Under the pieces are notes generated by a model. That model saw nothing but the letters and a program-made list of their open reading frames with translations, ran no database searches and was not told where the DNA came from. Positions 8,405 through 44,482 of a stretch of 64,000 nt of DNA are shown one piece after another (within the stretch, counting starts at the first letter, position 1; the number at the start of each line of letters is the position of its first letter). The DNA is from Longimicrobiales bacterium (GTDB taxonomy: Bacteria; Gemmatimonadota; Gemmatimonadetes; Longimicrobiales; Gaopeijiaceae). The stretch is taken from the NCBI GenBank assembly GCA_965248195.1, contig CBDFIQ010000001.1:64001-128000 (forward strand), written 5' to 3'. The position numbers were made by a program, and so were the translations under genes.

Positions 8405-8574
8405 GGTCTTCAGCCGTTTAATCCAATGTATCGAGGAGACCCAACCCATCTTGAACATCGCTCTGCCCTCACGCTCCTTCAAGACCACCGAATGGGTCCC
8501 CCGAACGCCGGGATCCACCTAACACGTAAGAGGCTGATCTGGATCCATTCGTTAAAGAGGGGCGGGCGTCTGAA

Positions 8575-8627
8575 AAGCCTTCAAGCCACGGCAGGGGGAG
8601 GCGTCCGTAAGCCTTCAAGCCACGGCA
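8575..8627. repeat. direct repeat duplicating the 3' end of the GT2 gene
   Basis: AAGCCTTCAAGCCACGGCA at 8575-8593 and 8609-8627 (34-bp period). Confidence 0.85.
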
Positions 8628-9622: not shown

Positions 9623-9623
9623 T

Positions 9624-12587: not shown

Positions 12588-12754
12588 GTTCGGAATAGCA
12601 CAACAAGTCGGGGACGGCGCAACGGGGGTCCCGGCCCGGAACACGTCCCCAGGCAACGGGTAGCCCGACGCCCACGCCGACGCGCACGCCAACGTCGTAA
12701 GACGCCGTCGTCGGTCGCCGCCGTCAGCCGCCGCAGTCATCCACCCACTGAGGA

Positions 12755-14695: not shown

Positions 14696-14730
14696 GGGCG
14701 GGCTTCAGCCCAGCTGCCGGTGCCGCTTGA

Positions 14731-16699
14731 TCAGCGCCGGACTCCGGCCACAACCTCCGGACCATCCGCAGCGACGCCCATGTTATCCGCAACCGGAGCA
14801 CTGCCCTCAATAGTGCCCCCGGCGGCCGCCAAGCTGTCGGCCACCGCGGCCGCAGCGATGCTATCCGCGACCATCCGAGCCAACGCCCGTTCCTCGGCTT
14901 CCAGCTCCATGGCCACGTACCGTTCGGACACGGGCACGATCCTGCCTCCGACGCGCATCTCGGGTTCCACACCCGGTGGATAGCCGTCCACAGGCTCCAA
15001 AGCACTCTCCGTATAGCGGCTCGACGCATTCCAGAGCAACCATTCGTCGATGCCCGCATCGTACGTCGCCTGAATCTGCGCCCGGACCTCCGGCGCTTCG
15101 TATCGGGGCGCTCCCAAGGTGAAGTCCTGAAGCCACGGCCGCGTAACTCCCGCCCCCTCTACCGCCTCAGAGCGCTGCACTGCAGATAGGAGCGCCGCCC
15201 GCACGATCTCATAGGGGTGGCCGTTCGGGTCCTGGAAGCCAAAGCTCCCAACCCAATAGTGGGACGGATAGACCATGGGGAGCGCCACGTCGACGGAACC
15301 GATGAAGCGTTCCCAGTACTGGCCGATCCCGACGTCGCTCTGGGCGGACGTGGTGGCCCCGAAGACATCCATCGTCATGGCGACCCCGGAATCCTCCAGC
15401 TCGGCCCGGGCGTACTCCAGAAAGGCCTCGACCGCGTCTCTGCGACGGCGCCCCTCGGCACCGGGGAAGACTGCCCTGGCGAGATCCTCCTGCGGGGCGT
15501 CCGGCGAAACGCACGTAGTCCCACTGGATCTCAGGGAAGCCGACCGCGGCGGCCTCCTTCGCCAAATCGACGTGGTAATCCCACACGCGCTGATCGTGGA
15601 GGTTGGCCCAGATAAGACCATTGCTGTCCACCCAGACACCGCCCGCCGTGTCCTGCACTGCCCACTCCGGCCGTACACGAATCAGAAGCGGATCCTTGAC
15701 TATCACTATGCGAGCGATCGGATAGATGCCGGCCTCCTGGAGCCGCTCGAGGAGCCCCATCAGGTCCCGAATGCGGATCTCCTGATCCGCGCCCGCCTCA
15801 CGGGCCGTCATCACTTCGGTCGCATAGCTCACGTAGCCCGAGGCGTCCTTGAGGTCGATCACGAATGTGTTTACTTCGGTCCGTGTCGCTAGATCGATGA
15901 GGGCTTGGGACCGCGCAGTGGACCCCGCCGCCCATGCGTTCACATAAATGCCCTTCACCGCATCGGGTCTGATGAACTCGAGGGGCTCCTCCGGCAGGAC
16001 AATCCGAGCCACCGAGCCGCCCCCACTGGCGCGGGCGGTCGGGGCCGGAAGGTTTTCACCGACCAATTCCTCGGCGAGCCAAGCCAACGTCTTCTCTCGT
16101 GCGCTCACTTGCGGCTCGTCATCCTCCACGACGTCGCTGTCGTCGTCATCCTCGGTATGGGCGTCGCTGTCGTCGTCAATCCTCGTGTCGTCGTCAGTCC
16201 TCGTGTCGTCGTCAGTCCCGGTGTCGGTGTGGGCGCCGCCCTGCGTATCGTCGGTGTCCGCAGCGGCGGTAGCGGCCGATCCCCGTTGAGATTCGGTTGA
16301 GCTCGCGTCCGGGTCGGCATCGGTGCCTCGCTGAGACGGCGAATCCCCTACGACCTGGGGCGAGGAGGTCGTCCGCCTCTCGAGCGTGGGCCTCCCGCTC
16401 GAGGCATTGGAAGTGGGGGCCTGAGTCGTCATGCCTGCACCCTGATTCGCAGCGACCGCGCCCGAATTCGTGCCGGCATCCGACGCAAGCACCGCCGATG
16501 TCACGGCCTCCGCACCCTCCGACGCCTGGGCGCGCCGGGCCGTTTCCCCGCCGCACGCGGCCAGCAGGACGAGACAAGTCACCGTCGAAAGCGGCGAATA
16601 TCGGGAAAGCTGCGATCGCAAAGTCAGGTCTCCCCTTCGGAGAGGGTCCCCGGTCCAGCCTGTGAGGGGAAAAACTGGGTGATCAAATCGGCGGTCCAC
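14731..16699 (-). pseudogene. putative glycoside hydrolase (DUF4015-like) lipoprotein with a +1 frameshift
   Basis: VKGIYVNAW...EIQWDYVRF in one frame continues as PDAPQ...PMVYPSHY...RPWLQDF in another; removing the base at 15505 restores DYVRFPD. Confidence 0.8.
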
Positions 16700-31042: not shown

Positions 31043-31188
31043 GCATAACGGTCCAGGCGCTCCCGACGCGGAGGTGAGCGTAGCTCACCGGAGTGTCCCG
31101 AAGGGCCGGGCCCGCGTCCATGGATAAGCCACACGCGTACGGCGCGAAAGCGCTCCATGAGGGCCCGAGCGGGAGCGCAGCGTTATGT
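31043..31188 (-). other. attC-like recombination site 1
   Basis: plus strand GCATAAC...GTTATGT cores with inner stem GCGCTCCCG/CGGGAGCGC. Confidence 0.8.
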
Positions 31189-31218
31189 GACGTGTAGCTG
31201 GCGGTCGAGCCGCACCGT

Positions 31219-32016
31219 TCAACCCATGCCGCTTGTGAAGCCGCCCATCAGGTCCACAGCTCCGTGCGTCACTCGGCCTCGGTTGAACACCCAGTCGATG
31301 AGAAGGAGGAAGATGCCGCTGACCCATGCGGCGTAACCGTAGCCGATGTAGCTGCCGGTCAGAAATGAGTAGAACCAGTCCTGAACGAAGAGGTAGCCGA
31401 TAATCGAGACGCCGGTGGCCGCGAGGAGAAGCCAGAGTGCCAGTCGAGCGGCTTCCGGCGCGGCACGCCCGGCGAACGAGGCGACGAAGACCATCAAGAA
31501 GAGGGCCGCGTTGATCCCGCTGAAGATCCGAAGATCGCGGACGAGGTCGGTGACGGCCTCGGAGTACCGACCCCGCGCCCAGGACAGGGCGGTTTCGGAA
31601 CCTCGCTCCAACAACGAGACCTGAAACGCTCCCAACTCGTTGATCATCGCCGCCAACGTGTCTGTTGACATGCAGTTGTAGTGACAGAGGCTCGCCAAGG
31701 CGTCTGCGAGTCGCGTGCTGAGTCCCGCGCTCAGAGCACTTCGCAATGTGTCCGCGCGATCGGAGAAGACCTCGGCCAAGGCACCGAGTCGACCCGAACT
31801 CATTACTGAATCCAGTTGGCTGAACCTCACATCTACTTCGGCCGTGACGCGTTCCACGACATAGTCATGAGCGCGCGTCTCGAGGCTCCCCGGGAAGAGC
31901 CATGCTAGCGCGAAGCAGGCGGAGAACAGGAGCGAGCCAGCCCCGGCTATTGCACGAAGGCCCGGGTCGGCGGCAGCAAGGCCCCGACCGCGCGAGCCCT
32001 CCGACTGATCAGCCAT
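31219..32016 (-). CDS. cassette: hypothetical multi-TM membrane protein
   Basis: ORF fills the interval between att sites; cassette ends complementary at 14/17 nt. Confidence 0.75.
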   Translation of the reverse strand: MADQSEGSRGRGLAAADPGLRAIAGAGSLLFSACFALAWLFPGSLETRAHDYVVERVTAEVDVRFSQLDSVMSSGRLGALAEVFSDRADTLRSALSAGLSTRLADALASLCHYNCMSTDTLAAMINELGAFQVSLLERGSETALSWARGRYSEAVTDLVRDLRIFSGINAALFLMVFVASFAGRAAPEAARLALWLLLAATGVSIIGYLFVQDWFYSFLTGSYIGYGYAAWVSGIFLLLIDWVFNRGRVTHGAVDLMGGFTSGMG

Positions 32017-32105
32017 GGCGATCTCTGAAGCTGGATGGGCGGACAGATGCTATATGTCAATATTACATGTCACTGTTACATGTCATATGGGGGATGCTAC
32101 GTGTC

Positions 32106-32198
32106 ACTTAACGTTCAGAGGTTGCCGGCGCGGCGCCTCCGGCGCCGTGCTCTCCGGAGCGAACATAGTGAGCGTAGGCGGCAACCTACTTGTTATGA
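32106..32198 (-). other. attC-like site 2
   Basis: ACTTAAC...GTTATGA; stem AGGTTGCCG/CGGCAACCT; near-identical to site 3. Confidence 0.85.
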
Positions 32199-32220
32199 GT
32201 CGTGCGACCGATTGCACAAC

Positions 32221-32607
32221 TCAATCGTCGATGCCAAGCAAGATATCGGCGGGGATCCCAAGGAGGCGCCTCAGTCCCTCAACCTGAGCCTTGGAAAGTT
32301 CTCGTTTGCCATTCAGGAAGTCCGATACGCGGCTCTTTCCACCCATCACCTGATCGAGATCCGAGCGGTCCAGTTCCTTCTGCTCCAGCATGAACGTCAC
32401 GGCCTGCTGGGGCGTCACCGAACCCATGGGGTAACGCTCGTCCTCGTAGTGCTCCACCAATACCGAGAGGAATTCCAGCCGGTCGTAGCCCTCACTCCCA
32501 GGCTCGACGTCCTCGTCTACCAGTTGTTCGACCTCCGCAATCGCGGCCTCATACTCCGCGTCGCTCCTCAAGACATGTGGCTTCGAGAAGTCCAGTACCG
32601 TTGTCAT
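32221..32607 (-). CDS. higA: cassette: HigA-type antitoxin (HTH)
   Basis: LEFLSVLVEHYE...KSRVSDFLNGKRELSK; downstream of the toxin. Confidence 0.85.
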   Translation of the reverse strand: MTTVLDFSKPHVLRSDAEYEAAIAEVEQLVDEDVEPGSEGYDRLEFLSVLVEHYEDERYPMGSVTPQQAVTFMLEQKELDRSDLDQVMGGKSRVSDFLNGKRELSKAQVEGLRRLLGIPADILLGIDD

Positions 32608-32626
32608 AATGCGTCTCCTCCCGCGC

Positions 32627-32929
32627 TCACAGCGCTCCTTCAATCGACTTCCGGTCGTACTCCTCATGCGTCAGCACGTGACGGACGTACACTCGTCTGA
32701 GATCGTATCGCATATCGACGACCAATCGATACTTGTTCCCACCAATGTTGAAGATCGTCCGACGCGCACCTAGAAAGCTCGCCGTCGGAAAGTCCGCCCG
32801 TAGCTCGTGGGGCGATCGATAGTCTTGCGACTTGATGATCCGGTACCACGCATCCAGTGGAGCCTCAGCGTCAGCGTGTTTCTCGGCGAACTGGCGTAAA
32901 GGCCTCCGCGAGATGATCCGCACCGCCAC
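32627..32929 (-). CDS. higB: cassette: HigB family toxin
   Basis: RIISRRPLRQF...LDAWY...FNIGGNKYRLV...LTHEEYD. Confidence 0.9.
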   Translation of the reverse strand: MAVRIISRRPLRQFAEKHADAEAPLDAWYRIIKSQDYRSPHELRADFPTASFLGARRTIFNIGGNKYRLVVDMRYDLRRVYVRHVLTHEEYDRKSIEGAL

Positions 32930-33022
32930 TCCCCACCAAACAAGTTCCTGGATCGGAAATATACATTACCAACATGGGAACATCGTCACCTGAGGTCAAC
33001 TCCAGTCCGTAGGGAGCATGAC

Positions 33023-33115
33023 GCATAACGTTCAGAGGTTGCCGGCGCGGCGCCTCTGGCGCCGTGTCCTCCGGAGCGAACGTAGTGAGCGCAGGCGGCA
33101 ACCGCACTGTTATCG
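33023..33115 (-). other. attC-like site 3
   Basis: GCATAAC...GTTATCG; stem GGTTGCCG/CGGCAACC. Confidence 0.85.
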
Positions 33116-33148
33116 GACGGCGCTACCTTATCGCCAATCGCACCGGTC

Positions 33149-33229
33149 TTTAAACGAACTCGGCTGCTCTCCGCGGGCGCAGCACGCGACCCTCACGTTA
33201 TACGCGACAGTAGCAATCGCTTGTTATGC
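33149..33229 (-). other. degenerate attC-like site 4
   Basis: TTTAAAC...GTTATGC; its inner end GTTATGCGGCG is the exact complement of CGCCGCATAAC at 34152-34162. Confidence 0.6.
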
Positions 33230-33233
33230 GGCG

Positions 33234-33306
33234 ATCCACCTGGATTAGCTCTTCGTGACGGGCGCGAGGCCGTGGAGCCCGCTTCCACGAGAGCTAGTCA
33301 TTATCC
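33234..33306 (-). other. decayed att-like hairpin with both cores mutated
   Basis: AGCTCTTCGTG...CACGAGAGCT stem with the same 6/4-nt spacing to ATCCACC and ATTATCC. Confidence 0.45.
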
Positions 33307-33314
33307 GACCACGG

Positions 33315-34028
33315 TCACGTGCAGGCACCGGACCTGAGAAGGAGCAAATGCTCGCGTCCGGGGACATCGATAAGGTGCTCTGAATTACTGAGACTGAAAC
33401 CCGGTACAGGAGTTAGCAGGCGATTACCGGGCTCGCAGTTCGTAAGGTTGGTCGTTCGGACTTGGCCAACGATCGGGATCTCCAGACACCGCCCGTTCTG
33501 ACTAACCAGGAGAGTACCGGCATCATCGTAAGCTAGACTTAGGAACTTGACGCCAACCAGAGTGAAATCAAAAGCGGGAGTGACCCCGGCGGGCATACGA
33601 ACGGAGCCGTCTCGCCTCGCGAGCTCCGCACAACTCGGACACCCCACCACCAAGGCGTCCCCTTCTAGAACCAACGTGCCCGTTGATGTCAACACGATCG
33701 GTTCGCGCTCGTTCGAGAAGCCTGCCACGGCGACAGAAGCCTGACCAAGGGATGTGCAATACATGCCGCCGGTGTAGCCCGACACAACTACCTCCAACGA
33801 GTCTGGTGAAGACCCGTCAGGCACGCGCACGCGAAATTCCGAGTAACCCCTTGCGTCCTCAGGCCCACGGCTGATGAGAATCGAGGCGAGATCTCGCACG
33901 CTAATCTCCATCTCCACGCAGCCCAGTTCATCACCAGGGCACTCTGAAAGCAGGCTGACTTCTTGGGATGAGCTCGGATGTGCGACGCAAGCAAGCGTAC
34001 TGACCAGAAGTATCGAAGACGAACGCAT
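33315..34028 (-). CDS. cassette: hypothetical Cys-containing secreted protein
   Basis: ORF within complementary cassette ends; signal-like MRSSSILLVSTLAC; start uncertain. Confidence 0.6.
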   Translation of the reverse strand: MRSSSILLVSTLACVAHPSSSQEVSLLSECPGDELGCVEMEISVRDLASILISRGPEDARGYSEFRVRVPDGSSPDSLEVVVSGYTGGMYCTSLGQASVAVAGFSNEREPIVLTSTGTLVLEGDALVVGCPSCAELARRDGSVRMPAGVTPAFDFTLVGVKFLSLAYDDAGTLLVSQNGRCLEIPIVGQVRTTNLTNCEPGNRLLTPVPGFSLSNSEHLIDVPGREHLLLLRSGACT

Positions 34029-34192
34029 GCGCTTTCTCCAATCGCGGGCCCAGGGCGAGTCCATTCTTAACGGTATGGAGCCCTTCTGTGAGGAACAAGC
34101 GTGATTACCGAAGAACCAACGACAATCTGCCGAAGATGCACACCTGCCGACCGCCGCATAACTACTGATTCTACCACACCCCACTCGTTCTC

Positions 34193-35568
34193 GGTCAAGT
34201 CCCGATTTGTGTGTAAAAGCGGAGGAAGCTCCTCGCCTTCGGCTAGGCTGCTTGGGCGACCTCCTGTTTCTGGAGGAGTGAGAGGTCGAGGTAACGCCGG
34301 TCGCCCCAGACGTGTGTGGTCCTGAGTGCGACGGCCGTGATGAGCCTGAGGGCGCTGGCCCGGTCCGGGAAGGCGCCGGCGGCCTTGATCCTGCGTTTGA
34401 TCTCGCCGTGCAGCCGCTCGAGGCTGTTGGTGGTACGCAGCCGGGGCCAGTGCGCCTCGGGGAACGCGTAGAACTGCGTCGCTGCCCCGAAGCCCCGCTC
34501 CAGGACCTCCACGGCCTCGGGCAGCTCCTTCTTCCAGCGTGCGCCGAACTCGCCCAGGAGCTTCTTCGCCTCGGCGAGTCCGGATGTCTGGAAGATCACC
34601 GAGACCTCACGCGCCACGCGCTTGCGTAGGCGGTGGGGGACCCTCGCCCCCACATTACGCTGCAGATGGACCGTACACCTCTGACGGCGTGCCTCGGGCA
34701 GGAAGCGGCGGACCGCAGCTGCCAGGCCTGCGTGCTCATCGGCGATCACGAGCTCGACACCGCCGAGGCCGCGGTCCTGGAGTTGCTCGAGGAGCTCCGA
34801 CCAGCTCTGCTGCGACTCCTCAGCGCCCAGCGTGACGGCCAGGAGCCGTCGGTGACCCTCAGGGCCCACTGCATACGCCACGAGCGCACTCACGTTCTCG
34901 ACTTTGCGGGCCCAGCGGGCGTCCAAGAACGTGGCGTCCAGGTACAGATAGGGGTGAGGCCCCTCGATCGGCGCACGGCGCAGCCCTTCCACGGCCTCGT
35001 CGAGCCGTTTTGCCACACGACTCACCGTCGAGCGCCCAACACGCTCGCCCATCAGCGCCTCGGTGACGTCGCCCATCTTGCGCTGTGACACGCCGCTCAC
35101 ATACGCCTCGACCATCATCTCGTCGAGCTCGGGGCTCCTGCGCTGGTAGCGGCCGATCACGTCGGCCGGCGAACCGTTGTCCCGGCTCCGGGGCATGGCG
35201 ACCTCGATCTGCCCCAGGCTCGTCAGCAGCCGCCTCAGGTATGTGCCGTTCCTATGGTCCTTCCGGCTTCCCACCCGCTCGAAGCGGCGTGCACCTACCA
35301 TGGCCTTCAGCTCCTCTTCCAGCACCATCTCGAGCGTCAGCCGGATCGCGCCTTGAAACAGCTCGCGCAAATCATCGCGTAGCTCGTCTTGCGTGGCCCG
35401 ACCGATCTCCACAATCTCTTGCATCGGAAGCTCCTCTCCGGTTCCGAGCCTGCTCTGCAGACCCGGACTCCCGGGTTCATGTGACAGTGAACAACAACAG
35501 AGGAGCTTCCGTTTTTCTTTCCCTCCTGTCCAGCTTATCCGCTTTTACACAAATCTAGGGACACTACC
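34193..35568 (-). mobile_element. IS256-family insertion sequence, copy 1 (1376 bp)
   Basis: imperfect ~31-bp terminal IRs (GGTCAAGTCCCGATTTGTGTGTAAAAGCGGA / GGTAGTGTCCCTAGATTTGTGTAAAAGCGGA); 9-bp TSD CTCGTTCTC at 34184-34192 and 35569-35577. Confidence 0.95.
34243..35424 (-). CDS. IS256 family DDE transposase
   Basis: RNGTYLRRL, GVSQRK, YLYLDA, IADEH.GL, QRCTVH, TTNSLER. Confidence 0.95.
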   Translation of the reverse strand: MQEIVEIGRATQDELRDDLRELFQGAIRLTLEMVLEEELKAMVGARRFERVGSRKDHRNGTYLRRLLTSLGQIEVAMPRSRDNGSPADVIGRYQRRSPELDEMMVEAYVSGVSQRKMGDVTEALMGERVGRSTVSRVAKRLDEAVEGLRRAPIEGPHPYLYLDATFLDARWARKVENVSALVAYAVGPEGHRRLLAVTLGAEESQQSWSELLEQLQDRGLGGVELVIADEHAGLAAAVRRFLPEARRQRCTVHLQRNVGARVPHRLRKRVAREVSVIFQTSGLAEAKKLLGEFGARWKKELPEAVEVLERGFGAATQFYAFPEAHWPRLRTTNSLERLHGEIKRRIKAAGAFPDRASALRLITAVALRTTHVWGDRRYLDLSLLQKQEVAQAA

Positions 35569-35585
35569 CTCGTTCTCGCGCTGTC

Positions 35586-35739
35586 GTCTAACGTTCTAGA
35601 GTTCCGAACCGGCGCGTCCGCATGCGCACCGGTTCAGCTCTCTTCACTGACTTCCTGCACTGCTTCCTGGCTCACCACCGTTCGCGCCGGTTTCTCCGGA
35701 GCGGCCACAGGCCGCGTAGGCGGAACTCGTTTGTTAGGC
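35586..35739 (-). other. attC-like site 5
   Basis: GTCTAAC...GTTAGGC; stem GAGTTCCG/CGGAACTC. Confidence 0.85.
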
Positions 35740-35773
35740 GCTGCGCGCTCCAGGTCACCAGACCAAGCCTCAT

Positions 35774-36265
35774 TCACGACCCTTTTGGATCAAGGACCCG
35801 ATAGGGCACCCCAATCCACGCGCCGGTTGAATCGGTCCGGAGAAAGAACCGAACCTCGCATTCCCGCTCGAAGAGTCTGAAGAGGGGGATCCCTTCGAAT
35901 TCCCAACTGACCCTTACGACATCCGACTGCCCAGCGTCTAGCACGAAGGGCCCATAGGCCTCGGCCCCGGTCGAGAAGGTCCTCGCAGTGAAGACCTCAG
36001 TCCCCGCCGCGAGAGCGATTGAGTCAATCGCCACTGGGACGAGCGTTGGGTTTTCGAACCGGATCCGAACAGAGGCCCATTCGTTGCCGACTAGTCCACC
36101 AATTCGTCCGGTTTCCGCGACGATTAGACCAACCCTCCCAACCCATGTGGCAGAATCAGTTTGGGTCCATTCGGCTGGTGCGATGTCGATCCCTGGATCA
36201 CAGGCAAGGAGAGCGAGGATCATCCCGCTACACCCGATTCGACAGACTCGCCACCACCGCATCAT
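35774..36265 (-). CDS. cassette: hypothetical lipoprotein
   Basis: LALLAC lipobox-like; ends GTTAGGCGCT/AGCGCCTAAC perfectly complementary. Confidence 0.7.
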   Translation of the reverse strand: MMRWWRVCRIGCSGMILALLACDPGIDIAPAEWTQTDSATWVGRVGLIVAETGRIGGLVGNEWASVRIRFENPTLVPVAIDSIALAAGTEVFTARTFSTGAEAYGPFVLDAGQSDVVRVSWEFEGIPLFRLFERECEVRFFLRTDSTGAWIGVPYRVLDPKGS

Positions 36266-36296
36266 CCCCTGAAATTCTCCTTAGGTATTGAGTAGC

Positions 36297-36455
36297 GCCT
36301 AACGTTTCAGGACTCCGAACTGGCCCCGTCCAAAACGATTCCAGCCTCAGCTCTCTGCGAAGCAACACCTTCGTTCCCCGACCCCATTCTGCCCATGGGC
36401 CAGTTGGGTCGAAGGCCGCCGTCAGGCGGCCGAAGCCGGAGTCCGATTGTTATAT
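36297..36455 (-). other. attC-like site 6
   Basis: GCCTAAC...GTTATAT; stem GGACTCCG/CGGAGTCC. Confidence 0.85.
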
Positions 36456-36528
36456 GCCGTCGCTTCCAAGGGAGGTAGTCAGGCCAACCTACACGACCTT
36501 GCGAGTATGCGTCTCAGTCTTTGGGCTG

Positions 36529-37104
36529 CTACCACACCTTCCACCAAGGCCGTGACCTCCTCGGAGCAAGGTCGGCGAAGACCCTCGGGGCGGCCTTCAA
36601 GGGGCCCACTGGATCCTCGTCGTGCTTGAAGCCAGTGATCTCCTTCGCCGCGAGCAACGGCAAGTCGAACACGAAATCGACCTCGGCTCGACCTGCGTCC
36701 TCCTTCTTCTGCTCCTCGAATATGCCTTGGCGCAGTTCGTCAAAGCCCTCCGGCAGCTCCCCTCTCAGCTCGAGCTCGTACTTCCCCTTCTGGGCGTCAT
36801 GCGCCAGCCGCCAAACTTCGCTCCCGCCTTTCCAGTACGCGGCCGAGCTATACATGACGTGCTCCTCCACTGCGCAGGCGACACAGCTATACCGCTGAGA
36901 AAGGGACCTGAGGAACTCCGGGTCGACCAGACGATGGTCGCATCGCTGACCAACGAGCACGAACCATCCCCCTTCCAGGGCACAGCCTGAGATGGAGGCT
37001 TCGAAGTAGGGATCGGGCTCTGCACTCGGCTCGATACGTGCCTCTTGGAACAGCGCGGACGGATCCTCTGTCTCCACTGCAAGCCATGCGATGGCGTAGC
37101 CCAC
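36529..37104 (-). CDS. cassette: hypothetical protein ending in PWWKVW
   Basis: ORF between att sites with GGAGG RBS. Confidence 0.8.
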   Translation of the reverse strand: MGYAIAWLAVETEDPSALFQEARIEPSAEPDPYFEASISGCALEGGWFVLVGQRCDHRLVDPEFLRSLSQRYSCVACAVEEHVMYSSAAYWKGGSEVWRLAHDAQKGKYELELRGELPEGFDELRQGIFEEQKKEDAGRAEVDFVFDLPLLAAKEITGFKHDEDPVGPLKAAPRVFADLAPRRSRPWWKVW

Positions 37105-37175
37105 TATTCGGCCTCCCTGTTCAACTGCACGGGTCTAGTCATGGATCGCGTAGCCAAGCGCAGCCTGGCGATGGC

Positions 37176-37269
37176 GCATAACGTTCAAAGTTGCCGTCGC
37201 GGCTCGCGAACGCGAGCCGTGATCGTCGTAGTGAGCGCAGCGAACGAAGCCGGCAACTGTTTGTTAGCC
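37176..37269 (-). other. attC-like site 7
   Basis: GCATAAC...GTTAGCC; stem AGTTGCCG/CGGCAACT. Confidence 0.88.
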
Positions 37270-38563
37270 GGCGTCCGTAGCATCAAGACGACTCAGCAGT
37301 GCCACAACCTCCTCGGCAGTCGGCATCGGAGCGGATAGGACCTCGTCGATGACCACGCTTAGGTCCTGCCTGATCTCTTGCAGTAGTTCGTCGGCAAGGA
37401 GCACAGCAGTGGCTGAGAAGGACCGCCCGGCGTCCTCGAATTCGAGCCAGACGGGGTCCGTCACAAACGACCGTTGTTGAGGGATCTTGGTGAATCTGAC
37501 GTCTACGATCCAAGCACATCCGCGACGCAACGACGGGCGACACGGCTTCCCCCGCGATCCGCGTTCCGTAGGGCAGAATCCGCCGGAGCGACCCGTGCAA
37601 CGCCGTTCCCCTCGCCCGCAGTGGGTCGCCTGGAGGAGCAGGGGGCTTCGGTGGCCCATTCACGGTGGCCAGCGTGTGTACCTGCACACCAACCGGAAAG
37701 CTCACTCGAAGTGACACGTCACTAGCCGGCGCCGTCCCGTCGTTCCGCACCCTGAACCGCAGCGGTTGCAGGTGCACCGTGCTCTGGAGGTATTGATTCA
37801 GCGAATTCAGCCACGTGCCGACCGCTGCGAGATAGGTCGAGATTCTACGCTCCTCATCTCGCGCCTCCGGTGGAATGAGCGCAGGATCGAAGTTTTTGAA
37901 GCGCTTTGAGGGGTCGGGGTACTTGGCCTCTATAGAAGTCGCCACACCACGAATCAGAGAATCAGGGAAGCGGAGCGCCTGTCGCGGCCACTCGATTTCG
38001 AGTATCGGGCCCTCACCGAAATCCACGTGCAGGTCAGGGCGACGTGCCCTCTCCTTTTCAAGTTCGGCCTTTAGGCGCCTGATCTCATGGACCTGGGGGT
38101 CCTGCGATGCCGGTAGTGAGTAGCGAGACGGCATGTCCCACGCACGGATACCGACAAGCCCTGCGGCTATCCTGGGCGTAACATCATGAGTTACCAACCC
38201 CACCGCATGAGCTGACTCCTGCAGACGCAACCCGATCGCCACGAGGCGATGATCCGGGTTGGAGCGACTCAGGTTAAGCGCCTCGAAGTCCGCCTGAGGC
38301 TGCAGCGAGCAGAATTCTAGGAGCGTCCCATCGGACAGCTTGATCGGCGACCCTGACGACTGGATCTTCTCGATCAGCCCCAGGATCCGCCGAGCCCGGT
38401 CGCGGCGTCGCGCGTTCGGGTGGGCATCCTTGAGCTCGTCCAGCTCCTCGAGGTTGACCCAGGTCATCCTCACCGCTTCCACCTGACAACCTGCGACCTC
38501 CGCCCAGTCTGCGCCCTCGAAGTCGAAGTGCAGCAGGACGTTGGTATCGACGATGATATTCAT
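37264..38563 (-). pseudogene. cassette: PIN-domain protein with probable frameshift near the 3' end
   Basis: IIVDTNVLLH...EELDELK...NPDHRL...LVTHD PIN motifs; a plausible C-terminus in another frame stops at the TAA within the att core (37264). Confidence 0.7.
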
Positions 38564-38616
38564 ACCAACTCTCACTCCTCAATCACCCGTCTCCACCTCC
38601 TCACAGTGCGGATGCC

Positions 38617-38709
38617 GGCTAACGTTCCAGGGTGCCGACGCGGCTCGCAACGCGAGCCGTGTTCTCCGGAGCGAACGCAGTGAGCGCAGGCGGCACCCGT
38701 GTGTTAACT
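38617..38709 (-). other. attC-like site 8
   Basis: GGCTAAC...GTTAACT; stem GGGTGCCG/CGGCACCC. Confidence 0.88.
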
Positions 38710-39544: not shown

Positions 39545-39631
39545 AGTTAACGAATAAGGATTGTTTCCGAACTCTACGGAAGAGCGGGCAGGAAGGCGAG
39601 GTAGTGCGAGTGCGGAAAGGATCCGTTGAAC
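39545..39631 (-). other. att-like site at the 3' end of the recombinase/transposase module
   Basis: AGTTAAC...GTTGAAC; GGATTGTTTCCGAACTC pairs with GAGTGCGGAAAGGATCC (14/17). Confidence 0.7.
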
Positions 39632-39648
39632 GAAGCCGCTACGTGGTG

Positions 39649-41024
39649 GGTAGTGTCCCTAGATTTGTGTAAAAGCGGATAAGCTGGACAGGAGGGAAAG
39701 AAAAACGGAAGCTCCTCTGTTGTTGTTCACTGTCACATGAACCCGGGAGTCCGGGTCTGCAGAGCAGGCTCGGAACCGGAGAGGAGCTTCCGATGCAAGA
39801 GATTGTGGAGATCGGTCGGGCCACGCAAGACGAGCTACGCGATGATTTGCGCGAGCTGTTTCAAGGCGCGATCCGGCTGACGCTCGAGATGGTGCTGGAA
39901 GAGGAGCTGAAGGCCATGGTAGGTGCACGCCGCTTCGAGCGGGTGGGAAGCCGGAAGGACCATAGGAACGGCACATACCTGAGGCGGCTGCTGACGAGCC
40001 TGGGGCAGATCGAGGTCGCCATGCCCCGGAGCCGGGACAACGGTTCGCCGGCCGACGTGATCGGCCGCTACCAGCGCAGGAGCCCCGAGCTCGACGAGAT
40101 GATGGTCGAGGCGTATGTGAGCGGCGTGTCACAGCGCAAGATGGGCGACGTCACCGAGGCGCTGATGGGCGAGCGTGTTGGGCGCTCGACGGTGAGTCGT
40201 GTGGCAAAACGGCTCGACGAGGCCGTGGAAGGGCTGCGCCGTGCGCCGATCGAGGGGCCTCACCCCTATCTGTACCTGGACGCCACGTTCTTGGACGCCC
40301 GCTGGGCCCGCAAAGTCGAGAACGTGAGTGCGCTCGTGGCGTATGCAGTGGGCCCTGAGGGTCACCGACGGCTCCTGGCCGTCACGCTGGGCGCTGAGGA
40401 GTCGCAGCAGAGCTGGTCGGAGCTCCTCGAGCAACTCCAGGACCGCGGCCTCGGCGGTGTCGAGCTCGTGATCGCCGATGAGCACGCAGGCCTGGCAGCT
40501 GCGGTCCGCCGCTTCCTGCCCGAGGCACGCCGTCAGAGGTGTACGGTCCATCTGCAGCGTAATGTGGGGGCGAGGGTCCCCCACCGCCTACGCAAGCGCG
40601 TGGCGCGTGAGGTCTCGGTGATCTTCCAGACATCCGGACTCGCCGAGGCGAAGAAGCTCCTGGGCGAGTTCGGCGCACGCTGGAAGAAGGAGCTGCCCGA
40701 GGCCGTGGAGGTCCTGGAGCGGGGCTTCGGGGCAGCGACGCAGTTCTACGCGTTCCCCGAGGCGCACTGGCCCCGGCTGCGTACCACCAACAGCCTCGAG
40801 CGGCTGCACGGCGAGATCAAACGCAGGATCAAGGCCGCCGGCGCCTTCCCGGACCGGGCCAGCGCCCTCAGGCTCATCACGGCCGTCGCACTCAGGACCA
40901 CACACGTCTGGGGCGACCGGCGTTACCTCGACCTCTCACTCCTCCAGAAACAGGAGGTCGCCCAAGCAGCCTAGCCGAAGGCGAGGAGCTTCCTCCGCTT
41001 TTACACACAAATCGGGACTTGACC
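39649..41024 (+). mobile_element. IS256-family insertion sequence, copy 2 (1376 bp)
   Basis: same ends and identical transposase protein as copy 1, in opposite orientation; flanks ACGTGGTG/ACGTGGGG (7/8 TSD). Confidence 0.95.
39793..40974 (+). CDS. IS256 family DDE transposase
   Basis: protein identical to 34243-35424. Confidence 0.95.
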   Translation: MQEIVEIGRATQDELRDDLRELFQGAIRLTLEMVLEEELKAMVGARRFERVGSRKDHRNGTYLRRLLTSLGQIEVAMPRSRDNGSPADVIGRYQRRSPELDEMMVEAYVSGVSQRKMGDVTEALMGERVGRSTVSRVAKRLDEAVEGLRRAPIEGPHPYLYLDATFLDARWARKVENVSALVAYAVGPEGHRRLLAVTLGAEESQQSWSELLEQLQDRGLGGVELVIADEHAGLAAAVRRFLPEARRQRCTVHLQRNVGARVPHRLRKRVAREVSVIFQTSGLAEAKKLLGEFGARWKKELPEAVEVLERGFGAATQFYAFPEAHWPRLRTTNSLERLHGEIKRRIKAAGAFPDRASALRLITAVALRTTHVWGDRRYLDLSLLQKQEVAQAA

Positions 41025-41214
41025 ACGTGGGGCTATGGAGATTGGAAGGCCGTCGAACTGGCTCCGGATGGCCTGAGGCACGCGAGATGGTGGACGGAGC
41101 CACCGAAGAGAGTGGGGATCGGGCTCCGACACGACCATGTGGGAAGTGATGAAGGGGCTGTGGCCGACGTAGGCACAGTCGGGTCCATCGCCGCCGTTGA
41201 GGAACAGCCACGTA

Positions 41215-42423
41215 TCAGGATGCGACACGGTGGACCCATGGGTTCGGAGGAGGAGGTCGCCCGAGGACCTGCACACACTGTAGCACGCCCTTTCTACAGC
41301 TGGGACAGACGTGCAGATCACGAGGCCGTAGATCGAGGAGGATCTCATCGCCATCGAGGGACTCTGGTTGCGGATCGAGGGAGACTGCTGGCTGCCCGAG
41401 TGCCTCGCGAGAGCATGCGAGCAGTCGAGCGCGGCTGGCGTTGGCGAAGATCCCGTAGTAGCGGATACGCACGAAGCCCTTCGGTAAGACGTGTAGCAGG
41501 AAGCGACGGGCGAACTCGTGGAGGGGAAGCATGAGAGTCCGGGCCCTGCGACCTCGGTAGTCCTTGTAGCGGAAGCACACAGACTGGTCGTCTACGTGGA
41601 GCAGACGATGGTTCGAGATCGCGACTCGGTGGGTATAGCGAGCCAGGTACTCGAGAACGGGCTTCGGACCGTCGAAGGGGGGTTTGGCATAGACGACCCA
41701 CTCAGTCTGGCGAGCCGCGTTGAGGTGGCGCGCGAACGCCGCGCGTGAGCGGTAGCGGGCGAGGGCACCGTGCAACTCGAGGCTCCCGTCCCGAAACGCA
41801 TCCCAGAGTCCTGCGGTGAACTTTCCCCGGAACAAACGACTGAGCACGCGCACCGGCAGGAAGAAGCCCGGCCGACAAGGACGCCATGTACGGTCACCTT
41901 CCGCCAGGCCGCCCGCTGGGACAACGCAGTGTACGTGCGGATGATGGACCAGCGTCTGGCCCCAAGTATGCAGGACGGCGAAGAACCCGATCCGTGCGCC
42001 GAGATGCTTCGGGTTCAGGGCGACATCCTGCAGCGTCCGCCCCACGGTACGAAGCAGGAGACCGTAGAAAACGCGTGGGTTCTGCAGCGCCAACGGTGCC
42101 AGGCTCTGCGGCACAGTGAAGACGACGTGCGCGTAGGGCACAGGTAACACCTCGGCCTGGCGTGCCTCGAGCCAGTCCGCTTGGGCACTACCCTGGCACT
42201 TTGGACAGTGACGGTTGCGGCACGAGTTGTACGAGATCCTCCGGTGACCGCAGGCGTCGCAGGCGTCGATGTGACCACCCAGCCGTGCGGTTCGGCAGGC
42301 GGTGATCGCCTCGACGACCGCACGTTGCTCCCAACTCCATCTCGCCCCGGATCCCAGCGAGCGCGGCGCTTCGCGGTACTCTTGGAAGACCTCGGCAAGC
42401 TCGTGCCGGGGTCGCTTGGTCAC
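41215..42423 (-). CDS. IS91 family (HUH/Y2) transposase
   Basis: Zn-binding CxxC...SCRNRHCPKCQ; HVVFTVP; LHTWG..HPHVH (HUH); YLARY (Y2); IRYYG. Confidence 0.93.
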   Translation of the reverse strand: MTKRPRHELAEVFQEYREAPRSLGSGARWSWEQRAVVEAITACRTARLGGHIDACDACGHRRISYNSCRNRHCPKCQGSAQADWLEARQAEVLPVPYAHVVFTVPQSLAPLALQNPRVFYGLLLRTVGRTLQDVALNPKHLGARIGFFAVLHTWGQTLVHHPHVHCVVPAGGLAEGDRTWRPCRPGFFLPVRVLSRLFRGKFTAGLWDAFRDGSLELHGALARYRSRAAFARHLNAARQTEWVVYAKPPFDGPKPVLEYLARYTHRVAISNHRLLHVDDQSVCFRYKDYRGRRARTLMLPLHEFARRFLLHVLPKGFVRIRYYGIFANASRARLLACSREALGQPAVSLDPQPESLDGDEILLDLRPRDLHVCPSCRKGVLQCVQVLGRPPPPNPWVHRVAS

Positions 42424-43278
42424 CTACTCCGTTGGCTCGAACTCCGAGCTCAAGGCATCCAGAGGACTCTTAATCGAACGGAGCCGTGCCGTGGCCACGT
42501 GCGTGTAGATCGCCGTGGTCTGGAGCGCCCGGTGACCGAGCAGCGTTTGGATCATCCGCAGATCCGTGCCCGACTCCAGCAGGTGCGTCGCGTAGCTGTG
42601 ACGGAGCGTACGGGGTGTCACCCGCTTCGTGATCCCCGCTCGCGCACCGGCCGCCCCGATCACTCGTTGTACCGTCCGGCTCGTGAGCGGCTGGTCCGGA
42701 GCGCGTCCGTAGAACAGCAAGCTCCTTGGCCTGTACATACGCCAATATGCCCGCAGCGTCGCCAGCAACACGCCCGACAGGACCACCTGCCGGTCCTTGT
42801 CCCCCTTGCCGTGGCGCACGGTGATCACCATCCGGTCACTATCGATGTCGCGCACTTGCAGCCCCAGCACCTCGCTGGTCCTCAGCCCGCCACCGTACAG
42901 CGTCATTGCCATCGCCCGGTGCTTCAGGTTCCCTACCCCCTTGAGCAGACGTCCGACCTCCTCCGGGCTTAGCACCACCGGGTTGCGTCTCTTCTGTCGC
43001 GGGTAGGGGAGGTGGGGCAACAGCTCCGGCCGGTCCAGCGTCACACGGTACAGGAACCGCATTGCCCCCACCGCCTGCTTGAACGCCGAACGCGATACGT
43101 CCCGCTCCTCCTTCAGGTACCGCAGGTATCCGCGTATCTCTTCGCGGCCCAGCGTGTCCGGAGATCGCCCGAAGTGCTGCGCCATCTCGGCGACACGTCT
43201 GATGTAGATCGCCTGCGTGCGCTCTGCGTAGTTCCGGACCCTCAGATCCGTCAGCATCTTCTGCCGTAGCTCGCTCAT
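42424..43278 (-). CDS. tyrosine recombinase (IntI-like N-terminal SAM domain, no IntI-specific insertion)
   Basis: LYGGGLR, GKGDKDR, RTLRHSYATHLLE, LLGH, TAIYTHV; GAGGAG RBS before ATG 43278. Confidence 0.92.
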   Translation of the reverse strand: MSELRQKMLTDLRVRNYAERTQAIYIRRVAEMAQHFGRSPDTLGREEIRGYLRYLKEERDVSRSAFKQAVGAMRFLYRVTLDRPELLPHLPYPRQKRRNPVVLSPEEVGRLLKGVGNLKHRAMAMTLYGGGLRTSEVLGLQVRDIDSDRMVITVRHGKGDKDRQVVLSGVLLATLRAYWRMYRPRSLLFYGRAPDQPLTSRTVQRVIGAAGARAGITKRVTPRTLRHSYATHLLESGTDLRMIQTLLGHRALQTTAIYTHVATARLRSIKSPLDALSSEFEPTE

Positions 43279-43407
43279 CGGTCCCTCCTCGACTGGGTTG
43301 CGTTGGGGCACGCAACCTACTCGCCCAGTCCTCGGAACCTCGGCCCTACTCAGACACCGGAATCACCACCCACCGCGAGCCCTCACCACCCACCGCGTAG
43401 CGGTTTA

Positions 43408-43527
43408 GTTCAACGATTTCTTCCCGAACCATATCAGATTACCCGCCGACTCGCGATGCCATCACGACGGATGTCGCCTATGCTCGGCCAAGCCGGAACG
43501 TGTCGCCCTCCGGCCCAAACGTTATGG
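43408..43527 (-). other. poorly paired or hybrid att-like interval
   Basis: GTTCAAC and GTTATGG cores present but no long-range stem; GTTATGGGCCATCAC matches the far end of the HigBA cassette at 13/15. Confidence 0.5.
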
Positions 43528-43543
43528 GCCATCACGCCTCAAA

Positions 43544-43870
43544 CTAGGCCGGGGACTTCGCACCGCGTCCGCCAGGGTACCGTGGGATCTTCTTGAGGAC
43601 CTCGGCTTCTGACTTCCGCGCGTGGTAGAGGTCCCAAGCGAGTTGGAGATTGAGCCAGAAATCAGAGGAAGTTCCGAAATACTGAGATAGGCGAAGCGCA
43701 GTACTTGGGGTAACTCCGCGACGTCCATTAACGATCTCGTTCACACGCTGGTAGGGAACGGCGATCGCATCTGCCAGCTGCCTCTGGGTGATCCCCATCG
43801 GTGCTAGGAACTCCTCCAGGAGCATCACTCCGGGATGCGTCGGGAGGCGATGAGTGGGCACACGAACCAT
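43544..43870 (-). CDS. higA: cassette: HigA/VapI family antitoxin
   Basis: PTHPGVMLLEEFL..GITQRQLA..VNEIVNGRRGVT..ALRL..FWLNLQ. Confidence 0.92.
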   Translation of the reverse strand: MVRVPTHRLPTHPGVMLLEEFLAPMGITQRQLADAIAVPYQRVNEIVNGRRGVTPSTALRLSQYFGTSSDFWLNLQLAWDLYHARKSEAEVLKKIPRYPGGRGAKSPA

Positions 43871-43878
43871 AAGAAGCC

Positions 43879-44172
43879 TCAGTGGTAATCGACGACCTGT
43901 ACGTCCTCTGGGCCGTTCGGCGTCCATCGGAAACAGATCCGGTATTGATCGTTGATTCGAATGCTATGCTCCCCTTTGCGGTCACCCTTCAGGGCCTCGA
44001 GTCGGTTTCCTGGAGGGATCCGGAGATCCTCAAGAATAGCGGCGGCAGCAAGCGCATCTAGCTTTTTCCCACCCTGCCTCCAGAGGGACTGAGGAAGCGT
44101 CCTTCGGGCCAGTTTCGTGGGGCGCCCATAGAAGAGATCCTCTGTCGCTTCGTCCTTGAAGCTTCGAATCAT
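43879..44172 (-). CDS. higB: cassette: HigB (RelE/ParE superfamily) toxin
   Basis: MIRSFKD...DLRIPPGNRLEALKGDRKGEHSIRINDQYRICF..DYH. Confidence 0.92.
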   Translation of the reverse strand: MIRSFKDEATEDLFYGRPTKLARRTLPQSLWRQGGKKLDALAAAAILEDLRIPPGNRLEALKGDRKGEHSIRINDQYRICFRWTPNGPEDVQVVDYH

Positions 44173-44173
44173 A

Positions 44174-44200
44174 TAGCATGATAGCCGGGATATCGTGCTA
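44174..44200. promoter_or_regulatory. putative HigA operator palindrome
   Basis: TAGCATGATA-N7-TATCGTGCTA (9/10) immediately upstream of the toxin ATG. Confidence 0.6.
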
Positions 44201-44235
44201 ACACAAGAAGAACCAATTACCTGTTCGGTGATGTC

Positions 44236-44290
44236 CGATAACGGTCCAGGCGCTCCCGACGTGGAGCGAAGCGTAGGTCCGCGGAGCGGC
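44236..44290 (-). other. truncated attC-like half-site marking the array end
   Basis: ATAACGGTCCAGGCGCTCCCGACG (44238-44261) is identical to 31045-31068 of site 1; partner arm not found. Confidence 0.65.
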
Positions 44291-44482
44291 CAGGCCCTCG
44301 TTGGGGTCAACGGCGGCGCGAAGTGAGCCGTCCTTGGCGCGGCAACCAACGACCGCGACAAAGTCACGGACCCTAAACCCATAACGGCTCCAGCCACGGC
44401 GGACCGAAGCGTTGGGACCAGTCTTCAGGTTCTCCAGCCGTTCGCACGTGATCCAAGTCGCGCACGGGTGGCGACTCTGACA

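Follow-up and report, generated by a model that had tools for sequence, protein, structure and literature searches.

Bulge-free attC-type sites in a Longimicrobiales cassette array probably go with their own I2-less recombinase clade

Results

The window, the whole stretch of 64,000 nt that was analysed, contains an array of seven attC-type sites in 7.7 kb, with seven cassettes whose ORFs all lie on the minus strand. Each cassette is followed by one site. As in integrons, the sites are less than 4 kb apart and the cassette ORFs are co-oriented; an I2-bearing integrase (I2 or intI_Cterm) adjoining the array was not found in the window. A pattern scan of the window detected six of the sites, which are all those proposed by a sequence-only reading (starts 32106, 33023, 35586, 36297, 37176 and 38617), and a seventh site, s0, was added to these. 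The starts of that reading are 4 nt lower than ours because it counted from the 7-nt core, whereas our coordinates span AAC to GTT (Table 1). The HigB-type toxin matches PF09907 at E 5.3e-30, and the HTH_3 match of its partner is weak and below the cut-off. The cassette load, consisting of a toxin-antitoxin pair, a PIN protein and orphan ORFs, is typical of integrons.

Table 1. Features of the cassette array and the neighbouring elements in the window.
Feature	Positions	Strand	Remarks
Site s0	31047..31184	-	Final site of the array, beyond the range of the sequence-only reading; 3/7 spacers, perfect 9-bp stem
Cassette ORF, 265 aa	31219..32016	-	No family match
Site s1	32110..32194	-	4/6 spacers, perfect 9-bp stem
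Toxin-antitoxin cassette	32221..32929	-	HigB-type toxin 32627-32929, HTH partner 32221-32667
Site s2	33027..33111	-	5/7 spacers with 8-bp stem, or 4/6 with one mismatch
Cassette ORF, 289 aa	33315..34184	-	No family match; same cassette contains an IS256 copy
IS256-family element in cassette	34193..35569	-	Mutator-type transposase 34243-35424
Site s3, long form	35590..35735	-	146 nt; 4/6 spacers, 8-bp stem
Cassette ORF, 163 aa	35774..36265	-	No family match
Site s4, long form	36301..36451	-	151 nt; 4/6 spacers, 8-bp stem
Cassette ORF, 191 aa	36529..37104	-	No family match
Site s5	37180..37265	-	4/6 spacers, 8-bp stem
Cassette ORF, 430 aa	37283..38575	-	PIN domain at N-terminus
Site s6	38621..38705	-	4/6 spacers, 8-bp stem
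Cassette ORF, 273 aa	38720..39541	-	Weak FG-GAP match; starts directly after GTTA core
IS91-family element	39621..43414	-	Inverted terminal repeats; recombinase 42424-43311 and Y2 transposase 41215-42423; ends approximate (blast boundaries and reading of the repeats)
Second IS256-family copy	39648..41024	+	Transposase 39793-40974

The sites in the window share one layout: TAAC, 3-5 nt, a perfect and covarying stem of 8-9 bp, a branched centre, the returning stem, 6-7 nt and GTTA. The TAAC and GTTA cores, which correspond to the core sites of integrons, are present in all seven. Five sites fit exactly the 4/6-nt spacers and perfect 8-9 bp stem that had been proposed for them (8 or 9 bp), and the 4/6 parse of the site at 33023 requires the single mismatch noted for it, with 5/7 spacers and an 8-bp stem as the alternative. 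Folding and parsing revealed an extrahelical base in the stem of none of the seven sites, in agreement with the claim that the stems are free of bulges. When TAAC and GTTA cores are demanded, the strict pattern occurs only at six sites of the window in the whole 4.86-Mb genome; the remaining genome-wide matches are dispersed singletons lacking these cores. The site family is confined to two places of the genome, the window array and contig 2. An Rfam search of the window, in a database from which the standard attC model is absent, gave no matches.

Covariation was analyzed in a set of 14 sites from nine genomes. The eight stem pairs are paired in 100% of the cells, and five of the eight vary on both sides. 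The covariation score was 0.265 compared to 0.095 in shuffled alignments, none of 500 shuffles reached it, and slid registers scored at most 0.076; the differing stems thus do covary, as had been suggested. The apical hairpin is strong (95.5% paired), and the 6-bp side hairpin is paired in 71%, with its two middle pairs mismatched in 12 of the 14 sites, including those of the window, and perfect in two. Hence, the three-way junction that had been deduced from the side hairpin is real, but in view of this pairing level and these mismatches the side arm itself is weak in the window copies. For the four short sites of the window, folding favours the bottom strand over the top strand by 2.5-4.6 kcal/mol.

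We built a site model from four sites of the window and searched 60 related genomes, of which 16 contained matches. Sites that are almost identical border on different genes in 16 other genomes from three families. The model gave 80 matches in 47 loci, and none of the 80 falls within any of the 15 loci with an I2-bearing IntI. The 77 full-length matches comprise 42 with a perfect stem of at least 8 bp, five with a shorter perfect stem (6-7 bp), 11 whose only defects are mismatches, five with a bulge in the 3' arm beside the spacer, one degenerate site with a bulge in the 5' arm, six other degenerate sites and seven for which the frame was not found. The canonical pattern of two bulges about 6 bp apart in the R''/L'' arm was detected in none of these 77, and the same parser does detect it in IntI-adjacent control sites. 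The longer spacer is on the 3' side in all 42 perfect sites (19 are 4/7 and 15 are 4/6), and all loci together yielded 85 distinct perfect sites, whose 8-nt stems fall into 31 sequences. Members of the family have fixed TAAC/GTTA cores, a fully paired, covarying stem of 8-10 bp without extrahelical bases, and a three-way junction. The unpaired spacer is unequal: on the coding strand, its 5' part measures 3-5 nt and its 3' part 5-8 nt. A further trait is the more stable bottom-strand fold of the four short window sites.

Classical attC sites contain two extrahelical bases 6 bp apart (PMC7439510). IntI genes scoring above the family cut-off are present in 15 of the 60 relatives, including the unpublished genome G037, and in this order, true IntI genes share the orientation of their sites. 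Two-bulge sites adjoin an I2-bearing IntI in three loci (4-bulge-6-bulge-9 in G055, 4-bulge-6-bulge-5 in G054 and 6-bulge-2-mismatch-7 in G026), a number that is low because most IntI contigs stop about 300 nt past the gene. Under identical parsing these canonical sites have 3-4/6 spacers. Of the two hallmarks put forward for the window sites, the missing bulges are therefore the distinguishing mark, but the 4/6 spacer is not.

The sequence-only reading had matched the bulge-free sites with an I2-less recombinase like that encoded at 42424-43278. The lack of I2 was confirmed: the recombinase (42424-43311) scores 215.7 bits against TIGR02249 (cut-off 265), with the match divided in two and profile positions 178-236 left out, and has 24 residues where VchIntIA has 66. 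It is the only IntI-like match within the window. Its assignment as the enzyme of the array did not hold up. The stop of the recombinase ORF abuts the start of an ORF for a Y2 HUH transposase (NF033538, 425.6 bits with a cut-off of 125; also PF04986 and PF14319), which begins one base past it, and both lie in an IS91-family element that is split by the second IS256 copy and has legible inverted terminal repeats at both ends. In a quick tree, the recombinase falls within an IS91-linked clade (22 rows, SH-aLRT 97). In 23 distant loci, many of them in Alphaproteobacteria, a member of this clade is directly followed by an IS91 transposase, and no bulge-free sites were found close to these 23 loci. 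Genome G005 contains seven copies of a close relative and no match to the site family. By this coupling, the clade and the copies in site-free G005, the recombinase is IS cargo. The pair agrees with IS91-family insertion sequences in family score, gene order, copy number, clade and terminal inverted repeats. What sets the element apart is its placement, exactly at an integron attachment site in the window as well as in G004 and G005. The copies in the two latter genomes lie at the attI crossover of IntI integrons. The end of the element opens with a GTTRRRY-like heptamer. A second copy in this genome, broken by IS256, is located at C1:1062757, about 200 nt downstream of a fragment of another recombinase, group B (see below). 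Some IS91 members carry an accessory tyrosine recombinase, as in reviews of the ISfinder type; a literature search found no paper on such members.

The group-B recombinases form an I2-less clade that is kin to IntI and Xer, and about 65 aa at their N-terminus make up an additional domain. In the alignment, about 40 residues are missing in groups B and C, and the six catalytic residues are invariant in group B. The clade obtained SH-aLRT values of 82-92 in a quick tree with this support measure only and an unresolved backbone, and lies outside the IntI clade (SH-aLRT 100%). Relatives in Bacteroidota share 33-38% identity, including the N-terminal domain, and form a neighbouring clade. Pfam HARP matches the N-terminal domain in two of nine members, with a best E of 0.0033 and under the 25-bit cut-off, and one further relative at E 0.0019. 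For a predicted model (pLDDT 91.9), the top Foldseek match was 4o66 (HARP; E 0.064), with XPB N-terminal domains next; VIA-align gave Z 5.6 for XPB (rmsd 2.2 over 55 residues) and Z 4.1 for HARP (rmsd 1.7 over 46 residues), values that folds can also reach by chance.

The idea that bulge-free sites fit some I2-less recombinase gained support from the group-B loci. In eight of 12 loci, the group-B gene is located 0.5-3.2 kb upstream of a bulge-free array and in the same direction, with 18 downstream same-strand sites in G317, 11 in G333, 10 in G058, four each in G060, G050 and G297, and one each in G040 and G006. Altogether, 53 sites around these eight genes are on the same strand, none on the opposite strand and none upstream. 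In the other four loci, no site was found within 2.7-7.3 kb of the gene. Searches for an I2-bearing IntI gave nothing in G058, G050, G060, G317, G333, G297 and G040; six of these are contiguous assemblies with 4-18 sites behind the group-B gene, so that the sites do not co-occur only with I2-bearing IntI. The G297 assembly is a single contig.

The genome of the window contains more than 100 IS256 copies, and its group-B gene is broken. Its N-terminal part is found on contig 2 next to three further sites, from which it faces away, unlike the genes of the eight intact loci, and a probable C-terminal part is at C1:1061968-1062558. Of the true IntI there is a fragment of 186 aa, truncated by IS256, that aligns without gaps to VchIntIA residues 127-308, including the I2 region. 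As both enzymes are disrupted and the neighbouring recombinase belongs to the IS91 element, the window array is probably an inactive remnant.

Discussion

In the current view, gain of the I2 helix, which recognises attC with its extrahelical bases as landmarks and reads the flipped-out bases, let integron integrases recombine folded single strands (PMC7439510, PMC7790495). In a large survey, I2-less recombinases near attC sites were judged not to be integrases (Cury et al. 2016, PMC4889954). We think that the sites described here are probably a genuine attC-type family of a chromosomal cassette array that goes with its own I2-less recombinase clade, group B. The sites would recombine as folded single strands, and the unequal spacer, in place of bulges, may set the choice of strand. 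The N-terminal domain, which weakly resembles HARP/XPB damage-recognition domains, might read the junction or the border between single- and double-stranded DNA, replacing the contacts between I2 and the bulges.

The main alternative, which we consider rather unlikely, is that these are ordinary integron arrays or CALINs served in trans by an I2-bearing IntI, with bulge loss as a tolerated quirk of the lineage and group B as an adjacent gene of different function. IntI enzymes are known to tolerate a wide range of attC sites, IntI is present in a quarter of the relatives searched, and the IntI fragment of this genome retains the I2 region. Moreover, G001, G004 and G007, drafts (87-92% complete) from the window's own genus, have sites and an I2-bearing IntI, and a group-B gene was undetected in them; this pattern, together with the fragments of both enzymes here, implies that true IntI may act on these sites. 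Yet six contiguous assemblies carry their arrays behind group B without such an IntI, none of the matches falls in an IntI locus, the near-complete genomes G005 and G011, which have IntI only, contain no member of the site family, and the place and orientation of the sites with respect to group B do not vary.

It is very improbable that, as first proposed, the recombinase at 42424-43311 is the integrase of the array. It is I2-less and located upstream on the same strand, copies of its element head integrons elsewhere (C1:1062757 and the attI crossover in G004 and G005), and the element's end begins with the GTTRRRY-like heptamer; however, its tight coupling to the Y2 transposase, the element's own terminal repeats, its transposase-linked clade without sites nearby and the seven copies in site-free G005 all speak against such a role. 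We give hardly any credence to the view that the repeats are intergenic hairpins, such as REP-like elements or terminators, instead of recombination sites. They do form stable folds after ORFs, but this view does not account for the fixed AAC/GTT cores with a covarying stem, the single site per cassette with typical cassette content, the near-identical sites beside different genes in other genomes of three families, or the restriction to two places in the genome.

Our preferred reading, a site family paired with group B, resembles several known systems. Like classical integrons, the arrays have AAC/GTT cores, sites that are imperfect palindromes, whose central spacer is unpaired and whose centre varies and may branch, and a single site per promoterless cassette of typical content; as in "inverted integrase" integrons, the recombinase gene is upstream and co-oriented. 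They differ from classical integrons in lacking two-bulge sites and in being headed by an enzyme without I2, with an extra N-terminal domain and outside the IntI clade. By the IntegronFinder definition, the window array resembles CALINs in having no IntI within reach (Cury et al. 2016, PMC4889954), but in contrast to CALINs, one clade heads the arrays of up to 18 sites. Our results suggest that, among the many "orphan" cassette arrays, some are served by an integrase that has gone unrecognised. If so, integron finders keyed to I2 and bulged sites undercount such systems.

More tentatively, and with somewhat less than even confidence, we propose a second integron lineage: a widespread I2-less family with a HARP-like N-terminal domain that would capture cassettes via bulge-free hairpins by reading the unequal spacer and the three-way junction, coexist with classical integrons in the same order, explain part of the "integrase-less" CALIN arrays and include, or be sister to, rAID-1 of Bacteroidales. 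Such a lineage would be a living image of the state of integrons before I2, or an independent route to single-strand site recognition. We found no published link between bulge-free sites and I2-less recombinases in the literature. One bacterial order holds both combinations, bulged sites with an I2-bearing enzyme and bulge-free sites with an I2-less one, and this makes enzyme-site co-evolution directly testable with few clones.

The precedent for the layout is rAID-1, which has a 5' XerD-like recombinase, co-directional downstream genes and intergenic repeats "reminiscent of integrons" (Ross et al.; bioRxiv 10.1101/471110). The first two of these features, with at least two co-directional genes, are found in eight of the 12 loci of the relatives, and repeated intergenic sequences are a likeness as well; in this genome the recombinase is fragmented. 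rAID-1 belongs to another phylum. Judged by the nearest named relatives, the system described here is Gemmatimonadota-like. The published text on rAID-1, in the parts available, gives motifs and not hairpin geometry or a link to I2. For rAID-1 membership, a recombinase has to share 44% identity or more with the rAID-1 enzyme of B. fragilis; the comparison made here, of group B with its Bacteroidales relatives, gave 36-38% identity. Further likenesses to rAID-1 are that the Bacteroidota relatives form the clade next to group B and that the array of G058 contains an immunity-type cassette (Imm50).

The attachment sites of the window array

A hairpin site on the minus strand follows each of the seven cassettes in the window array; besides orphan ORFs, the cassettes carry genes for a PIN-domain protein and for a HigB-type toxin with an HTH partner. 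Between the TAAC and GTTA cores of each site, a perfect 8-9 bp stem encloses a branched centre; 3-5 nt separate TAAC from the stem, and 6-7 nt separate the stem from GTTA. Across the 4.86-Mb genome, the strict pattern with both cores was confined to the window sites, and an Rfam scan of the window gave zero matches. Unconstrained minimum-energy folds of array segments were abandoned because their parsing was too noisy and the short core helix was often unformed; an explicit helix parser was used instead. Folding of the four short sites as single-stranded DNA favoured the plus (bottom) strand, by 2.5-4.6 kcal/mol over the minus strand.

Comparison of 14 sites from nine genomes revealed that all eight stem pairs are paired throughout, that five of the eight vary on both sides, and that the centre forms a three-way junction, in which the apical hairpin is strong and the 6-bp side hairpin weaker. 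The stem pairing, the covariation and this junction show that the sequence-only reading had described the sites correctly as having bulge-free stems and a branched centre; this observation is confirmed by the pattern scan and the parser as well. The 4/6 spacer, which it had considered non-canonical, is present in five of the seven window sites (for site 33027, the spacers are 5/7, or 4/6 if one mismatch is allowed, and for site 31047 they are 3/7) but is not distinctive. Classical sites of this order also have 4/6 spacers, and the missing bulges are therefore the real difference.

Locations of the features in the window and in other loci
Feature	Location	Strand
Seven hairpin sites	window 31047-38705	-
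IS256-family element, copy	window 34193-35569	
IS256-family element, copy	window 39648-41024	
IS91 element	window 39621-43414	
Group C recombinase gene	window 42424-43311	
TAAC-GTT junction-like motif	window 43500-43530	-
Second toxin-antitoxin pair	window 43544-44397	-
Group B probable C-terminal piece, own genome	C1:1061968-1062558	
Chimeric site	L057 14639-14799	
Chimeric site	L058 10178-10303	
148-nt sites in runs	L228 (G317:C1) 7991-15802	
IS3-like ORF pair	L016 6162-7615	
IS3-like ORF pair	L016 14337-15790	
IS3-like ORF pair	L017 1619-3072	

The site family in related genomes

We searched for the family with R1, a covariance model built from four short window sites (MAFFT misplaced the long ones). 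R1 detected three further sites on contig 2 of the own genome, matches in 16 of 60 related genomes, and 80 matches across 47 fetched loci; it relies on conserved sequence, and divergent site families will escape these counts. The 77 full-length matches were classified with a parser that permits bulges on both arms. None of them contained two bulges 6 bp apart, the standard given for classical sites in PMC7439510.

Stem classes of the 77 full-length R1 matches
Stem class	Matches
Perfect stem of at least 8 bp	42/77
Perfect stem of 6-7 bp	5/77
Mismatches only	11/77
3'-arm bulge at spacer edge	5/77
Degenerate, with 5'-arm bulge	1/77
Degenerate	6/77
Unframeable	7/77

The longer spacer is on the 3' side in 42 of the 42 perfect-stem sites. 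Over all loci, 31 different stems occur among the 85 distinct perfect sites counted.

Two sites, in L057 and L058, are chimeric: the left half of the stem belongs to one site type and the right half to another, which leaves at least two stem mismatches. Such sites would not arise from an exchange confined to the GTT core. The sites of L228 follow each other at a spacing of about 343 nt, so that only about 195 nt lie in between; the cassettes here are empty or very short, and they recur many times.

Three groups of recombinases

Recombinases were picked by phmmer, motif-based picking having missed many genes, and an alignment and a quick tree with SH-aLRT support defined three groups in this order, although the backbone of the tree is without resolution. 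Group A, found in 15 of the 60 relatives (the unpublished G037 counted), consists of true IntI proteins that score above the TIGR02249 cut-off and contain the I2 insert. In group B, about 40 residues are missing at the position of I2, and the full set of catalytic residues is retained; its proteins share a conserved N-terminal domain of about 65 aa, for which several signals, a fold match included, agree on a likeness to HARP and the XPB damage-recognition domain, each of them weak. Group C also lacks I2; both in the window and in 23 distant loci, its gene is immediately followed by one for an IS91-family Y2 transposase.

Relatives of group B abound, with at least 6954 proteins reaching E ≤ 1e-30 among the 8000 scored; their source names are XerD or "tyrosine recombinase/integron integrase". 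Among 27 distant loci from other phyla in which the match includes the N-terminal domain, a same-strand hairpin site follows downstream in nine, a lead only, as single matches in AT-rich DNA can arise by chance. Group B relatives of Bacteroidota and Spirochaetota that include this domain (L121, L122, L133, L138, L139, L140, L141, L148 and L179) have, 1-5 kb downstream of the gene and on its strand, AAC...GTT hairpin sites whose cores of 6-7 nt are fully complementary and whose stems are perfect or contain mismatches only.

Bulge-free sites and their likely recombinase

The sequence-only reading had proposed that sites without the bulge fit a recombinase without I2, and had pointed to the I2-less recombinase encoded in the window as one such enzyme. 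Such a split is seen, and this interpretation is partly supported, but the enzyme concerned belongs to group B. Bulge-free sites are located after the gene, on the same strand, in 8 of the 12 group B loci with downstream sequence, and sites are absent within 2.7-7.3 kb in the other four. In the eight loci, the first site lies 0.5-3.2 kb past the stop codon, the numbers of sites are 10, 4, 4, 1, 18, 11, 4 and 1, and none is upstream or on the opposite strand. Searches of G058, G050, G060, G317, G333, G297 (assembled as a single contig) and G040 yielded no I2-bearing IntI. R1 had no matches in G005 and G011, two near-complete genomes with IntI only, and none of its 80 matches fell within the 15 loci holding IntI. 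The sites adjoining true IntI in the three readable loci (G055, G054 and G026) all have bulges in the classical arm, with the exact 4-bulge-6-bulge pattern in two of the three. Within the window's genus, the arrays beside IntI are unreadable, as IS copies fill G005, G006 and G011 and draft contigs end about 300 nt past the gene. The drafts G001, G004 and G007 of that genus contain sites of the bulge-free family together with IntI, and no group B gene was detected in them.

The window gene itself falls in group C, in a clade (SH-aLRT 97 in the quick tree) shared with IS91-linked genes from Alphaproteobacteria and from other phyla. The IS91 element that carries it is bounded by inverted terminal repeats; the own genome contains a second copy, disrupted by IS256, and G005 has seven copies of the group C element, yet zero sites of the bulge-free family. 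These features identify the gene as insertion-sequence cargo, and its assignment as the matching recombinase does not hold.

Our literature search, with preprint supplements outside its scope, found no published tie between bulge-free sites and I2-less enzymes. In Cury et al. (PMC4889954), I2-less recombinases near attC sites are judged to be non-integrases, and Smyshlyaev et al. (PMC8138268) describe the insert as "not fully conserved" within their integron-like subgroup. Ross et al. (10.1101/471110) report Bacteroidales rAID-1 arrays with an XerD-like recombinase at the head and integron-like repeats.

Remnants and insertion sequences in this genome

An IS256-family element of 1376 bp is present in this genome in more than 100 near-identical copies, two of them in the window. 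IS-mediated rearrangements are implied by the breakpoints of several recombinase genes and of the second IS91 copy, which coincide with IS256 ends. The true IntI persists as 186 residues, aligned without gaps to VchIntIA 127-308, that are fused behind an aldo-keto reductase gene and cut by IS256 at the C-terminal end. Of group B, there is a probable C-terminal piece of 197 residues on contig 1 and, on contig 2, the N-terminal ~100 residues; a GTTA junction and the three sites lie ~0.55 kb from this fragment, which is oriented away from them. Because the IntI and group B genes survive only as pieces, the window array is most likely a stranded remnant.

The broken second IS91 copy starts about 200 nt past the group B fragment. 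In G007 (L096, G007:C38), the region past true IntI continues unbroken into a GTTAGGC core, and at the matching spot in G004 (L095, G004:C24) and G005 (L209), the IS91-family element with the I2-less recombinase is inserted, whose end starts with a GTTRRRY-like heptamer. This placement exactly at integron attachment points, seen for the window copy too, suggests that the element targets attI/attC cores, perhaps via its own recombinase.

Upstream of the window IS91 element lies a second toxin-antitoxin pair (HigB-like toxin and HTH protein), with no recognisable site beside it. Just upstream of the same element, the TAAC-GTT junction-like motif is followed by a 6-bp hairpin and lacks a partner core; it may be an attachment-site relic. 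Finally, an IS3-like ORF pair, encoding a 149 aa HTH protein and a 335 aa rve integrase core, is present in three copies, one of which lies within the contig-2 cassette array.
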